This document shows positions 1 to 34,096 of a stretch of 34,208 nt of DNA, one piece after another. The notes under the pieces are model-generated. The model saw only the letters and a program-made list of their open reading frames with translations. It had not been told where the DNA came from and made no database searches. Position 1 is the first letter of the stretch; each line of letters begins with the position of its first letter. The position numbers were made by a program, and so were the translations under genes. This DNA is from a virus (lineage: Duplodnaviria; Heunggongvirae; Uroviricota; Caudoviricetes). The stretch is taken from the IMG/VR virus record IMGVR_UViG_2778261511_000013. One strand, written 5' to 3'.

Positions 1-705
1 TCATATTAGAACCTCCCCGAGTAAACATTCCCAACGAAATTTCTTCAGTTTATATATTTCTAAATTATCCCTAATTATTCCATCCTGCTTTGCTTTATCG
101 GCCCAACGATTATGAGGATGTACAGTCCCAACTAACTGCCACCCAGCACCTTTTAAAGATGCGCCTGTTTCACTGCTTAGAGTATAGGTAATAATTTTTT
201 CTCCTCCCATCATTTTCCAGATTGTGCTACATCGACTAATCAGAAAGGAGCAAGTTCCTTTTGGAGATTTGTCACTGACACATAATCGTGTAATCTCTGC
301 CGTCACACCATCCATGTACGTTGCAGATACGGGATTTCCAACTATCGCTACACCAACCAATTCATCAGAATCTATGTGGTAGGCAGCTATAGCCCATCTG
401 CCCGAATTCCTTGACGTTGGTCGATGGTGTCGATGATAAATAGAAACAAATTCATTTGCTTTTTTTATCGTTATAGGTTTTACATATAGTAACTTCGCCA
501 AAATCCACACCTTGTAACATGATGGTAATATCATTACAACAATACAAAACTTATTGATTTTTAACAACCAATTATAATGCCTAACCCCCATAGCACTACT
601 TATCTTGTCTTCAAAAATCAGCTCGCATCCTGCACAGTTCAGCGCATTACGTTGTAGATCTGTGTTCTGGTCATTTGTTGACACACGTACATAGCCAATA
701 AGCAT
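1..705 (-). CDS. chimeric ORF: invertase N-terminus (~36 codons) fused in frame to an unrelated domain with GNAT-acyltransferase-like motifs (possible Mom-like modification enzyme or toxin)
   Basis: Open frame from ATG at 705 (SD CAGGGAG 8 nt upstream) to TGA at 3..1. Residues MLIGYVRVSTNDQNTDLQRNAL...IFEDK match the Hin/Gin/Pin serine-recombinase N-terminus, then similarity stops. Downstream ...ELVGVAIVG...RLCV..KSPKGTCSFLISRC...TYTLSSETGASLKGAGWQLVG resembles GNAT motifs. AT-rich linker at about 480-600. Confidence 0.4.
   Translation of the reverse strand: MLIGYVRVSTNDQNTDLQRNALNCAGCELIFEDKISSAMGVRHYNWLLKINKFCIVVMILPSCYKVWILAKLLYVKPITIKKANEFVSIYHRHHRPTSRNSGRWAIAAYHIDSDELVGVAIVGNPVSATYMDGVTAEITRLCVSDKSPKGTCSFLISRCSTIWKMMGGEKIITYTLSSETGASLKGAGWQLVGTVHPHNRWADKAKQDGIIRDNLEIYKLKKFRWECLLGEVLI
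598..705 (-). pseudogene. DNA invertase (Hin/Gin/Pin-family serine recombinase) N-terminal remnant; catalytic core and HTH absent
   Basis: Only about 36 aa including the YVRVST motif with the nucleophilic Ser are retained; no recombinase sequence follows. Confidence 0.6.
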
Positions 706-759
706 GGTAGATCTCCCTGACAAAAGCAGGGATGATGCCATTTGCTCGTTATTTCTACA

Positions 760-785
760 TTTTCATAAACGTTGGTTTGGGAGAA
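760..785. repeat. invertase crossover site (hix/gix-like 26-bp dyad), one boundary of the invertible tail-fibre segment
   Basis: TTTTCATAAACG-TT-GGTTTGGGAGAA; 20/26 identical to the reverse complement of the site at 2591-2616; resembles hixL TTCTTGAAAACCAAGGTTTTTGATAA as I recall it. Confidence 0.65.
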
Positions 786-1238
786 GGTTCGGCATTACCC
801 GTTGGTGTGCCTGTTCCGTGGCCTTCCGCCACTCCGCCAACAGGCTGGCTAAAATGCAATGGTGCGGCTTTTTCTGCTGAAGAATACCCGGAACTGGCAA
901 AGGTTTATCCGACAAATAAATTGCCTGATTTACGCGGTGAATTTATTCGTGGCTGGGATGACGGACGTGGAGTGGATGCCGGGCGACAATTATTATCTTC
1001 ACAGGGGGATGCAATAAGAAATATTGAGGGATTCGCAGATGGCGGAATCGGTATGTCTTTTGATGCAATCAGAGGGGCTTTTTACGATGCAGGAACACGA
1101 TCAGCGAGAATGCCGAATAACACAACTACTATAGACAAAACCGATGACCTTGGATTCGACGCCTCTCGTGTCGTGCCAACAGCTAATGAAAACCGTCCAC
1201 GTAACATCGCCTTTAATTATATTGTGAGGGCTGCATAA
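786..1238 (+). CDS. alternate tail-fibre C-terminal (variable) cassette, silent in the current orientation
   Basis: Frame is continuous through the crossover site (..NVGLGE|GSALPVGVPVPWP..); contains ..GWLKCNGAAFSAEEYPELAKVYP.., typical of Mu S / P2 H-type fibre C-termini; no independent start or SD; stop overlaps the Tfa start (TAATG at 1236-1240). Confidence 0.6.
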   Translation, partial: GSALPVGVPVPWPSATPPTGWLKCNGAAFSAEEYPELAKVYPTNKLPDLRGEFIRGWDDGRGVDAGRQLLSSQGDAIRNIEGFADGGIGMSFDAIRGAFYDAGTRSARMPNNTTTIDKTDDLGFDASRVVPTANENRPRNIAFNYIVRAA

Positions 1239-1831
1239 TGAAACCTGTTTTTGATGAAAATGGGCTGGCTACAGTGCCGGGTGATATGCGTTGTTTTTAT
1301 TATGATGCAGTAACGTCTGAATATACGGGCTGGTCTGATGAATATATTAATACTGGCGTAAGTATGCCCGCCTGTTCCACTGGTATTGACCCGGGCGAAT
1401 ACATTCCGGGGAAAGTGGCAGTATTTACGGGTAAGGGATGGAGCCATGAAGAAGACCACCGCAATAAGACTGTTTACTCAATCGAAAATGGCGCAGCTGT
1501 TACAGTGGATTATATCGGTGCCATCAAAGACGGTTATGTCACGATTTCAGCGTTAACGCCATACGATAAATGGGATGGTGAGAAATGGGTGACAGACACT
1601 GAGGCACAACACAGTGCCGCAGTAGACGCGGCAGAAGCACAGCGCCAGTCACTGATTGATGCAGCAATGGCTTCCATTAGTCTGATTCAGCTGAAATTAC
1701 AGGCCGGGCGGAAACTGACGCAGGCAGAAACAACCCGGCTTAACGCTGTGCTGGATTATATTGACGCGGTGACGGCAACAGATACCAGCACAGCGCCGGA
1801 CGTCATCTGGCCTGAACTGCCGGAGGCGTAG
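1238..1831 (+). CDS. tail fibre assembly protein (Tfa) for the alternate fibre cassette
   Basis: 197 aa; C-terminal ..LNAVLDYIDAVTATDTSTAPDVIWPELPEA matches the Tfa family signature; follows the fibre cassette. Confidence 0.75.
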   Translation: MKPVFDENGLATVPGDMRCFYYDAVTSEYTGWSDEYINTGVSMPACSTGIDPGEYIPGKVAVFTGKGWSHEEDHRNKTVYSIENGAAVTVDYIGAIKDGYVTISALTPYDKWDGEKWVTDTEAQHSAAVDAAEAQRQSLIDAAMASISLIQLKLQAGRKLTQAETTRLNAVLDYIDAVTATDTSTAPDVIWPELPEA

Positions 1832-2243
1832 GCCATTCAATATCTGGCGCACCGGAAGTATCGACCAGTTCCAGTGCGTCCAGATAATCCAGCCACAAAT
1901 TATATTGCGCCAGTTCCTCACCTTTCAGGCGACCAATCGCCGCTTTACCAGGCCATTGCTTACTGTTTATGTATTCGTTGACCTGATTAATCAATTGCTG
2001 CTTTTCCAGTTCGGCTGCGGCAATTTGTTCCTCATGAGTTGGCGGTGGAATATCAATCCATGCAGGCATTCCGTCGATGACACCTCTGTATTTTCCTTCT
2101 GGTGCTTCCTTCATAAATTCGGCGGCAACAGTGTCGTCAATTTCGATTCCATCATCGGGCCATTCACCGGATTCCTGATAAGCGATTTTAAGCTCCACAG
2201 GGAAAAACGCATTTTTATCGGCACTGAAAATATATTTCTGCAT
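1803..2243 (-). CDS. tail fibre assembly protein (Tfa) for the expressed fibre
   Basis: 146 aa; C-terminus ..YNLWLDYLDALELVDTSGAPDIEWPTPP is Tfa-like; convergent with the + strand Tfa as in Mu G and e14 P segments. Confidence 0.75.
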   Translation of the reverse strand: MQKYIFSADKNAFFPVELKIAYQESGEWPDDGIEIDDTVAAEFMKEAPEGKYRGVIDGMPAWIDIPPPTHEEQIAAAELEKQQLINQVNEYINSKQWPGKAAIGRLKGEELAQYNLWLDYLDALELVDTSGAPDIEWPTPPAVQAR

Positions 2244-2245
2244 TT

Positions 2246-2959
2246 CTACCGTCCTATCGAAATATAACTGAATCTGTATTGCTGTGAGATATCACTGGTT
2301 GCCACACGCCACGCTGAATTACTGATATGTTCAAAATTTACAGACAAAACCTGCGGGGCAGGATTCGACGGGTCTGACTGAACGGCATCAGACATAACAC
2401 TGACTGAAACCATCGGCTGATTAGGGAATGGTATAGGGAAGTGTCCACTGATAAAGCGGGTCGTGTTTCCTGAAAAAGTGCCAAACTGAACAATATATCC
2501 ACCTGGTAGCCTGAACCATCCCGAACCAGAAGCGAATGCTCCCATATCCGGTATCTGATTATCTCCTGTGCCCACATCCCTTTTCGCCGCTTCTCCTAAA
2601 CCAAGGTTTTCGAGAGCCGTTTTCACCGTGCCATCCGATTTGATATCGCCAAACGGATTCTTGCGGCTCAGGTATTCAACAGCAAACCCCGATCCCAGCA
2701 ATTCAACAAAACCGGGCAGATCACCATTATCAAGCACATCCCGTTGCGTTTTATCACTTACAAACTGGGCCAGAGCTGCAGCAATAAAGCTGGCCTGCCG
2801 AATAACCTTATTGACTTGCGCACTGGAGGCTTTCCCTGCTGTAAATCCAGATAAAAGCGCGGGCAACGCTTCCCATTCCTCCTGCGATATAACATTGGCA
2901 TTTCGATCCGTTGCAAACGCTTTAAAGTCATTTTTCGCCATCAGAGTAATACTCCCCAT
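2246..2959 (-). CDS. tail fibre protein (constant N-terminal part about 2617-2941, variable C-terminal part 2246-2590)
   Basis: 237-aa ORF downstream of the baseplate genes; crossover site lies within the gene at the GLGE motif; likely start is the ATG at 2941 (MAKNDF..), overlapping the upstream stop (TGATG). Confidence 0.65.
2591..2616. repeat. invertase crossover site (hix/gix-like dyad) inside the tail-fibre gene
   Basis: TTCTCCTAAACC-AA-GGTTTTCGAGAG; inverted relative to the 760-785 site; encodes LENLGLGE in the fibre frame. Confidence 0.65.
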
Positions 2960-6159: not shown

Positions 6160-6690
6160 TCAAACCTTACTTATTAACATGCACGTTACAGAAATAATAA
6201 AAAATACAAATGACATAACCATCCATCGAAACAACTCATTTACAAACGCTGATTTTTCTTTATGGATTTTCTCGATTCTATCAATAGCCCTACCATACAT
6301 TATCAAATGAAATCTGACTGTGTCATCTCTACTACCCCTCAGAAGAAATTCATGTTGTTCAGGTGTTCGATGCACAGGCATTTTGGGAATATTTCTAAGT
6401 TCCCAACATTTCCATAAATAATAAAAACAAAAAACCAAACATACAAAACATGAACATAGACACAATAGAGACAATCTTGCGGATAGACTAGTCTTTAACT
6501 GTTGTCCCAGCTCAAAGGACCCAAAAACGGCTAATAATGCAGAAATCTCAACACCAAGCACAGCAAGAAGAAAATTAGCTTTGTCCTCTAACCGCCTGTA
6601 TGTTGTCTTAACTTCTTCATACCTGTCTCTCGAGTACGACAAAATCGTATCTACTTCAAGGCCAACAGCCTCATTCCTTTGATTGCACAT
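6160..6690 (-). CDS. three-helix inner-membrane protein (176 aa), unknown function; moron cargo
   Basis: Hydrophobic segments FLLAVLGVEISALLAVFGSF, LSLLCLCSCFVCLVFCFYYLW and VMSFVFFIISVTCMLI; markedly AT-rich compared with flanking tail genes. Confidence 0.6.
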   Translation of the reverse strand: MCNQRNEAVGLEVDTILSYSRDRYEEVKTTYRRLEDKANFLLAVLGVEISALLAVFGSFELGQQLKTSLSARLSLLCLCSCFVCLVFCFYYLWKCWELRNIPKMPVHRTPEQHEFLLRGSRDDTVRFHLIMYGRAIDRIEKIHKEKSAFVNELFRWMVMSFVFFIISVTCMLISKV

Positions 6691-6696
6691 ATTGTA

Positions 6697-7050
6697 TTAA
6701 TCGTCAACCTTCTTACAAGGAAACGAACCTATGATTCTCGGCGCATCCATGCTGTTCTGCAGTAGTTGGACATTCAAGAAACGCGTTTCGGTACCCGGAC
6801 GGCGAATGAACTCGAAACCGTAATTGTTACCGTCTTTGGCTGGCATAAGCCCCATATCCGCCTTCATTCCATTACCGTTGCCGAGCGTTTTGATTTTCTG
6901 GGAGGTAACTGTCTCACCATTAATCCTGAACAATGAATCAGGAATCAACTCTAATTTGTAGCCACCACACTGAAGCGTGACACCGCCAGGATTCGCAGCA
7001 AATGCGAACCCCGGAAGGAAACAGAGTCCAATAACAATCCACTTTTTCAC
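6697..7050 (-). CDS. secreted/periplasmic small protein (117 aa) with cleavable signal peptide, unknown function
   Basis: GTG start with strong SD (GAGGTAGGA); N-terminus (M)KKWIVIGLCFLPGFAFA|ANP has an AxA signal-peptidase I site; two Cys in the mature part. Confidence 0.55.
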   Translation of the reverse strand: MKKWIVIGLCFLPGFAFAANPGGVTLQCGGYKLELIPDSLFRINGETVTSQKIKTLGNGNGMKADMGLMPAKDGNNYGFEFIRRPGTETRFLNVQLLQNSMDAPRIIGSFPCKKVDD

Positions 7051-24727: not shown

Positions 24728-24804
24728 ATGGTGCTGGTTAACGGACTTGAACCGCTACCCATTCGCTTACAAGGCGACTGCTCTACCATTGGAGCTAAAC
24801 CAGC
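24728..24804 (-). tRNA. tRNA, anticodon UGU by manual fold (tRNA-Thr)
   Basis: GCTGGTT-TA-GCTC-CAATGGTA-GAGC-A-GTCGC-CTTGTAA-GCGAA-TGGGT-AGCGG-TTCAAGT-CCGTT-AACCAGC-A-CCA; perfect 7-bp acceptor stem, good D and T arms, encoded CCA. Confidence 0.7.
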
Positions 24805-24809
24805 ATATT

Positions 24810-24884
24810 TGGCGGGACAGCGTGGACTCGAACCACGATAAGAAGGTTAACAGCCTTCCGTAATGACCTTTATACGACTGACCC
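24810..24884 (-). tRNA. tRNA-like gene, anticodon GUU by manual fold (tRNA-Asn-like), possibly degenerate
   Basis: GGGTCAG..GAAGG-CTGTTAA-CCTTC..CGTGG-TTCGAGT-CCACG-CTGTCCC-G-CCA; good anticodon and T arms, but a T:T mismatch in the acceptor stem and a weak D stem. Confidence 0.45.
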
Positions 24885-33859: not shown

Positions 33860-33931
33860 GCGCAGCGTTACCGCATACCAATAACGCTTCACTCGAGGCG
33901 TTTTTCGTTATGTATAAATAAGGAGCACACC

Positions 33932-34096
33932 ATGCAATATGCCATTGCAGGGTGGCCTGTTGCTGGCTGCCCTTCCGAATCTTTACTTGAACGAATCACC
34001 CGTAAATTACGTGACGGATGGAAACGCCTTATCGACATACTTAATCAGCCAGGAGTCCCAAAGAATGGATCAAACACTTATGGCTATCCAGACTAA
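33932..34096 (+). CDS. cIII: CIII (FtsH inhibitor)
   Basis: 54 aa by hand translation: MQYAIAGWPVAGCPSESLLERITRKLRDGWKRLIDILNQPGVPKNGSNTYGYPD; SD AAGGAG; matches lambda CIII as recalled. Confidence 0.8.
   Translation: MQYAIAGWPVAGCPSESLLERITRKLRDGWKRLIDILNQPGVPKNGSNTYGYPD

Follow-up and report, generated by a model that had tools for sequence, protein, structure and literature searches.

The first positions of IMG/VR record IMGVR_UViG_2778261511_000013, a 34,208-nt stretch of Caudoviricetes DNA, hold a tail-fibre inversion switch, the remnant of the DNA invertase gene pin, and the first gene of an AT-rich two-gene cassette, which encodes a GNAT of the XF1762 family. The whole stretch is called the window here, and all window coordinates refer to its full length. 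It belongs to the lambdoid prophages, has a contractile tail of the SfV/Mu type, and carries the switch and the cassette at its cargo end. The combination is new: a switch of a known type has lost its recombinase and is joined to an uncharacterised pair of genes related to Mom of phage Mu. The features of the locus are collected in Table 1.

Table 1. Features of the switch, the pin remnant and the two-gene cassette, in window coordinates except where a comparison locus (L number) is named.
Feature	Position	Strand	Remarks
XF1762-family Mom-like GNAT gene, native 166-aa form	1..501	-	TTG start 501-499, stop 3-1
AT-rich leader of the cassette ("linker" of the long reading frame)	502..598	-	Shine-Dalgarno AAGGTG 513-508; TTGTTAAAAA...TTTTGTAT block conserved; G5 run 589-585
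pin DNA-invertase gene remnant	599..705	-	ATG 705-703 plus 36 codons; pinE homology then lost
Candidate Fis-dependent recombinational enhancer in the pin stub	621..684	-	two G-N13-C cores
pin 5' untranslated and promoter region, from hix site to pin start codon	706..759	-	conserved with intact pinE loci, partly with Mu gixR-gin
hix/gix-type crossover site, invertase-proximal	760-785		TTTTCATAAACGTTGGTTTGGGAGAA; central dinucleotide TT; natural inversion end-points inside
Silent alternative tail-fibre C-terminus, Phage Tail Collar type	773..1238	+	Pfam Collar E 4e-15; in frame after simulated inversion
Silent tail-fibre assembly chaperone, 197 aa, partner of the Collar cassette	1238..1831	+	Pfam Caudo_TAP E 1e-26
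Tail-fibre assembly chaperone in current expression orientation, 146 aa	1803..2243	-	Pfam Caudo_TAP E 1e-34
Tail-fibre gene in current expression orientation, 237 aa	2246..2959	-	Pfam Gp53-like_C E 2e-8; open reading frame; GLGE junction
hix/gix-type crossover site inside the tail-fibre gene	2591-2616		TTCTCCTAAACCAAGGTTTTCGAGAG; central dinucleotide AA; natural inversion end-points inside
AT-rich partner gene, 344 aa	L002:6970-8004	-	overlaps GNAT stop; matches phrog_30351

A scan of the window with the hix/gix consensus TTMTCNNAAACCNNGGTTTNNGAKAA, allowing up to three mismatches, returns the two crossover sites of Table 1 and no others, where none is expected from 100 shuffles. Their central dinucleotides, TT in one and AA in the other, set the 26-bp dyads in inverted orientation, and one of them aligns with Mu gixR. 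Both dyads had been proposed in a preliminary description made from the sequence alone, and alignment to the hix/gix consensus, the check suggested there, bears them out. The longest exact match between the sites is shorter than the seed of a generic repeat finder, which therefore missed them; the consensus pattern recovered them. The cassettes between the sites are convergent, each with its own tail-fibre assembly gene, and N(L/V)GLGE is encoded at both crossovers. In the tail-fibre gene as currently expressed, a constant N-terminus (2959-2604) precedes a variable gp53-like C-terminus (2603-2246) that lies within the invertible segment. When the segment is inverted in silico, the silent Collar-type C-terminus is fused in frame to the constant N-terminus, and the product has 273 amino acids (aa) in place of the present 237. 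The window carries a classical Gin/Pin-type host-range switch, with two fibre C-termini and their chaperones served by one constant N-terminus, much as in the Mu G segment, to which the preliminary description, which also noted the shared GLGE context, had likened it; the Pfam matches of the cassettes and the in-frame inversion agree.

The invertase gene beside the switch is a stub. The long open reading frame (ORF) at 1-741(-) matches Pfam Resolvase only over residues 15-50, which correspond to profile positions 2-45 of 145. Compared with the intact pinE locus of strain LWY24, the window shows two mismatches through the promoter region, start codon and 36 codons; nucleotide homology stops at window 599, after codon 36, and from 598 the sequences are unrelated. 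A tblastn search of the whole window with PinE, in any frame, found nothing besides the stub. A DNA invertase has a catalytic domain of ~140 aa including the E-helix and a C-terminal helix-turn-helix (HTH), ~185-190 aa in all; the stub falls far short of this, and judging from what is left of the coding sequence it cannot encode an active recombinase. The junction between pin and the XF1762 gene recurs at 99.7-99.8% identity in 6 of 5426 complete Escherichia coli genomes, and 612 sample blocks, every one of them E. coli, list the fused protein. Because of this recurrence, truncation and junction are real and no sequencing artefact. The anatomy originally described, about 36 invertase codons running in frame through an AT-rich linker into a GNAT-like domain, is correct.

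What survives of pin appears to include the region where Gin and Hin carry the Fis enhancer. The stub holds just two 15-mers with a G-N13-C core, GTGTCAACAAATGAC (684-670) and GTGCAGGATGCGAGC (635-621), their centres 49 bp apart and the proximal centre ~95 bp from the centre of the hix site. Both cores lie within blocks conserved with the 5' end of Mu gin, with which the first 85 nt of pin align, and the breakpoint falls 22 bp past the distal core. The published Fis enhancer spans 65 bp, contains two Fis sites and lies ~100 bp from hixL inside the invertase gene (PMC3798978). The geometry of the cores in the stub fits this arrangement, so that they may be regarded as candidate Fis sites. Full-text searching of the literature for the enhancer sequence of hin yielded nothing relevant.

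Can a switch without its recombinase still flip? The preliminary description had judged it probably locked unless a trans-acting invertase were present. Orientation was compared by way of ten further loci that encode the identical fused protein. Two pairs of genomes differ by an exact inversion, of 1863 bp between L109 and L110 and of 1842 bp between L102 and L004, and in each pair the segments are 100% identical in reverse complement. The inversion end-points lie inside the hix sites in both pairs; flanking DNA is colinear in both, with identity that is complete or nearly so, and complete over ~2.5 kb on the left. The truncated fusion is encoded in each of the four genomes. The segment inverts in nature and the switch is not locked, so that the caveat of the preliminary description, and not its verdict, describes the operative case. 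Because the resident invertase is reduced to a stub, the segment cannot flip by itself, and flipping is presumably carried out by Pin-family invertases of other prophages acting in trans. A homologue of the deleted part of pin is present in 4697 of the 5426 complete E. coli genomes (~87%), with a median of two per genome, and trans inversion is documented for the e14 segment, on which PinQ of prophage Qin acts (PMC12529663). In the junction-bearing strain LH10-b-1 an intact 190-aa invertase with Resolvase and HTH_7 domains (L105:1665-2237) lies in an adjacent prophage remnant, ~2.3 kb from the truncated one, a ready source of trans activity.

The DNA that takes the place of the 3' part of pin is foreign and horizontally acquired. 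The GC content of the AT-rich two-gene cassette is 0.26-0.38 (~0.34-0.37 in the leader), against ~0.5 in the flanks. In every junction genome a 344-aa partner gene follows immediately to the left of window position 1, its start codon sharing an ATGA overlap with the GNAT stop codon. The closest relatives of the GNAT are stand-alone 166-aa genes at 73-82% identity, each followed by a gene of 336-349 aa that overlaps it by 4 bp; they occupy slots between S and V of a P2-like element, beside an integrase, or beside icd. Among species-representative genomes, a scan shows the two genes side by side at each of the nine close XF1762 loci, which span Pseudomonadota, Bacteroidota and Desulfobacterota and range from Enterobacter to Polaribacter, Pedobacter and Desulfoluna; the same scan did not place the partner beside more distant Mom-like genes. 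An overlapping ~340-aa partner ending in a two-helix membrane hairpin is common to all junction genomes, these nine loci and the metagenomic relatives, and its use as a mark of the XF1762 family derives from the present analysis. Clustered at 50% identity, the partner family has 582 representatives, and almost all share the ~340-aa architecture. An AlphaFold2 model (pLDDT, the predicted local distance difference test score, 85.9) predicts beta-sandwich (immunoglobulin-like) domains and two C-terminal membrane helices, with an N-terminal domain that resembles Lon-N/PUA-like folds (Foldseek E 1e-4).

Within E. coli the cassette is confined to 6 of the 5426 complete genomes, and the junction is unchanged in all of them. 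An ancestral arrangement of intact invertase plus XF1762 gene was sought and not found, and no close copy was found in sequenced phages, the best match being a Vibrio element at 62% identity. Elsewhere the pair often has as neighbours OLD-like ATPase, HNH, HEPN/Toprim and E2/ThiF genes, and integrases occur as well, a set of the kind found in defence islands and on mobile elements. A small serine recombinase gene stands directly downstream of the pair in Shewanella algae (L012:6974-7546, 190 aa) and in Polaribacter glomeratus (L013:6669-7352, 227 aa). A general association of the pair with recombinases was considered and rejected, there being none near the other seven close loci; these two cases are probably coincidental mobile-element context. 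In one metagenomic locus (L010:2-481) the cassette lies ~420 bp past the 3' end of icd, the e14 attachment locus, and no invertase separates the two.

The GNAT itself is a full-length XF1762 protein. Residues 87-238 of the long ORF match NCBIfam NF045478 at E 5e-50 and 169 bits (cut-off 50), over model positions 2-143 of 143, with 57-82% identity to 166-aa members of the family. The protein also matches PHROG 1384, "Mom-like DNA modification protein" (E 2e-38), and its partner matches phrog_30351 end to end; the E. coli allele differs from the other members of these families in being the sole one seen joined to an invertase stub. Fold comparison supports a GNAT fold, and the domain after the stub is GNAT-like, as first described. 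A profile search of PDB sequences with the GNAT retrieved chance matches only and did not retrieve Mom, so that the link to Mom was reached through fold comparison and the Pfam and PHROG profiles. Three residues invariant in the XF1762 family, H23, R72 and S85, fall opposite H58, R111 and S124 of Mom by two alignment methods, and the protein has both the GNAT fold and these catalytic-site residues. In Mom, which transfers glycine from Gly-tRNA(Gly) to the N6 of adenine in DNA, R111 and S124 are essential and H58A drastically lowers activity (PMC13219725). In the literature library searched, XF1762 appears in no paper.

Junction-bearing prophages sit at two attachment sites, argW-intS (L004) and torS/torT (L002, L003, L005 and L006). 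In the six complete junction genomes the invertible segments are mosaic and ~88% identical to one another, against 99.8% for the junction. An identical junction at two sites, beside segments this divergent, indicates that it has spread through recombination among related prophages.

Together, these observations are best explained by an orphaned switch that is flipped in trans, an incidental fusion, and a Mom-like two-gene cargo, a reading to which we assign a probability of about 0.75. The AT-rich cassette would have replaced the 3' four-fifths of pin, with its breakpoint after codon 36, and would have left in place the machinery needed in cis: the two hix sites, the promoter region of pin, and its first ~85 nt with a putative Fis-bound enhancer. 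The segment would then no longer flip by its own means, and Pin-family invertases from co-resident prophages would act on it in trans. The long ORF would arise through a chance absence of stops from the leader in the pin frame, and the GNAT would most likely be made, or also be made, from its own Shine-Dalgarno (SD) sequence and TTG codon as a 166-aa protein, translationally coupled to the partner through the ATGA overlap. Its chemistry may be an acyl or aminoacyl transfer like that of Mom, to nucleic acid or some other target, for which the membrane-anchored partner might serve as reader or effector. Direct observation covers the anatomy, breakpoint, foreign origin, gene pairing and natural inversion, while the enhancer, the choice of start codon and the biochemistry are inferred.

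Several observations weigh against this reading. The GNAT scores 23.3-24.6 bits against the Pfam Mom profile (PF25680), over profile positions 2-132 of 202, where the gathering cut-off is 27.1, and a direct hidden-Markov-model alignment yields only 1.9 bits. Two elements that Mom cannot do without, an HTH-like insertion at residues ~175-209 and the pair D149/R151 (PMC13219725), are not evident in the GNAT. Compared with the Mom structure PDB 8bv8, the model of the GNAT has one short helix (131-140) where Mom has a 35-residue DNA-binding insertion, and opposite Mom 149-151 the GNAT has S-S-E-T, where an invariant E stands in place of R, by manual inspection and not by computed alignment. A Mom-like role, which the preliminary description had called possible, has the family matches and the three catalytic positions in its favour and the profile score and the Mom-specific elements against it; on sequence grounds the GNAT appears to be Mom-like, yet not a Mom, and the relationship remote. 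As to what the cassette does, neither of its proteins matches a defence-system model of PADLOC-DB 2.0, apart from a spurious GNAT-SduA match at E 0.0097, so that it is the genomic context that would argue for a defence role, and a conflict or defence module is our best guess. The evidence for inversion comes from pairs of E. coli genomes other than the source strain of the window. The remaining points concern the fusion.

The strongest competitor holds that the chimera is functional, one 234-aa protein composed of Pin(1-36), a 44-residue linker and the GNAT, favoured because it gains the pin promoter and ribosome-binding site or a hydrophobic N-terminal tag. The 44-codon AT-rich leader is stop-free in the pin frame only: two in-frame stops present in relatives are gone, one of them at 507-505, where the relatives carry TAA or TGA and the window has TGG. 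This openness hints that the long ORF may be translated, even favoured. The native GNAT start is here weakened to TTG; a consensus scan of window 1-900 for sigma-70 promoters and for terminators returned no promoter at threshold and no terminator, so that none was found between the stub and the GNAT; and the 234-aa form is the one annotated by PGAP (the Prokaryotic Genome Annotation Pipeline) and widespread in E. coli. Other observations separate the two parts. The leader aligns with the regions upstream of stand-alone homologues (L008-L010), including the SD sequence AAGGTG six nt upstream of the TTG, and these homologues start, with MAK..., precisely at window codon L81, the TTG at 501-499; both the SD and the place of the start are shared with the 166-aa forms. 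The Pin fragment, missing E-helix, HTH and the greater part of the catalytic domain, cannot fold as a domain. Among the few cluster members listed and aligned, three variants fall in the 80-aa stub and linker against one in the 166-aa GNAT.

Natural alleles also break the fusion. In E. coli GCA_023236665.1 (L099:3758-4035) a 1-bp deletion in the G5 run at window 585-589 splits the pin stub, now a 59-aa ORF, from a 166-aa GNAT (WP_250147808.1). In GCA_003830995.1 (L100:1-125) the end of an IS26 lies ~25 bp upstream of the TTG, at window ~525, and the pin stub and most of the leader are lost. Both alleles keep the GNAT and partner ORFs intact, and the second keeps the SD sequence as well. The deletion in the first may be genuine, or an error of sequencing through the homopolymer. 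A functional chimera is thus improbable, though it keeps more credit than any other alternative. Since the GNAT retains its SD and TTG, and natural alleles uncouple the parts while leaving it intact, the fusion is probably incidental, a by-product of the cassette's replacement of 3' pin, and some read-through product is possible. The in-frame joining of invertase and GNAT, described from the outset, stands as ORF anatomy; as a meaningful fusion it most likely does not.

A second alternative keeps the switch locked and ascribes the opposite orientations to homologous exchange with related prophages whose invertase was still intact, and not to inversion after the truncation. In principle homologous recombination between related prophages could produce them, and the high mosaicism of this prophage family, with segments so much more divergent than the junction, lends this some plausibility. 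Such a route would require two crossovers and two independent occurrences with zero substitutions. In the two independent genome pairs the inverted segments are 100% identical, their end-points fall in hix, and the left flanks agree exactly over 2.5 kb. No cis element is disrupted, the enhancer among them as a candidate; Pin homologues able to act in trans reside in 87% of genomes, and inversion between prophages has been demonstrated (PMC12529663). This explanation is accordingly given little chance.

Still less probable is that the GNAT is the translation-targeting toxin of a TacT/AtaT-like toxin-antitoxin pair, an option raised in the preliminary description. Its size, its fold and its place in a prophage cargo position are compatible with one, but no small antitoxin gene neighbours it in any context looked at, no toxin GNAT family is matched, and the conserved neighbour is instead the 344-aa membrane-anchored protein. 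That a sequencing or assembly error conceals a full-length invertase, the frameshift case set out in the preliminary description, can be dismissed in spite of the G5 homopolymer in the linker, because PinE-like sequence is absent downstream in all frames, the junction is identical across six complete genomes and many drafts, and the DNA past it is homologous to an unrelated cassette of other taxa.

A bolder extension of the orphaned-switch reading can be offered tentatively, with the odds against it. The GNAT and its membrane-anchored partner might together make up a two-gene conflict system that has not been described before and that occurs both as phage cargo and within the defence islands of several phyla. 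In such a system a Mom-type acyl or aminoacyl transferase would mark nucleic acid, and the partner would read the mark, or its absence, and act at the membrane. Insertion of the cassette would have cut the E. coli invertase just past the enhancer, and the switch would survive by borrowing the invertases of co-resident prophages.

Two well-studied systems frame the locus. In Mu, the G segment, gin, com and mom follow the same order and strand logic: an invertible fibre segment, the 5' end of the invertase by the gix/hix site, and a Mom-type GNAT at the genome end, with the crossover site and the 5' region of the invertase alignable to the window. Unlike Mu, the window has its invertase cut to 36 codons and has no com gene. 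Its GNAT, 166 aa and of the XF1762 family, is without the HTH-like insertion of the 241-aa Mom, and is coupled to a membrane-anchored partner of 344 aa for which Mu has no counterpart. Because the cassette also occurs away from any invertase, the adjacency of invertase and GNAT reflects a shared cargo slot and not a functional link. The likeness to the P segment and PinE of e14 is closer still in sequence: the stub equals pinE over its first 107 nt bar two mismatches, and a pinE-bearing prophage matches the hix sites and the entire segment at 98.7% identity. Inversion by the invertase of another prophage is documented there for PinQ (PMC12529663). With the resident invertase destroyed in the window, trans-action is obligatory, not optional as in e14.

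Further along the window, two ORFs without a match in Pfam, of 176 and 117 aa at 6160-7050(-), separate the spike gene from the baseplate genes. In related prophages the position is taken by other genes (DUF2335, DUF4282 and hypotheticals), which suggests a second variable cargo slot. Genes for tRNA-Thr(TGT) and tRNA-Asn(GTT) lie at 24729-24884(-), upstream of the lysis region, and a lambda cIII thermoregulator RNA element scores 88.5 bits at 33919-33977(+), near the right end. The tRNA genes and the thermoregulator confirm a lambdoid regulatory backbone.

The locus amounts to a natural experiment on Gin/Pin-type switches, in which the recombinase is gone, the cis elements are kept, and the segment flips in the wild. 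The host-range variation of one prophage would thereby depend on the invertases of its neighbours, in keeping with recent evidence that Pin enzymes act across prophages. Public annotation can be corrected as well, the 234-aa ORF having been variously labelled "recombinase", "resolvase" and "XF1762 family protein". The tRNA-dependent DNA chemistry of Mom was solved only recently, and a gene pair found across phyla that shares active-site residues with Mom is a candidate for a new mechanism of nucleic-acid modification or defence.

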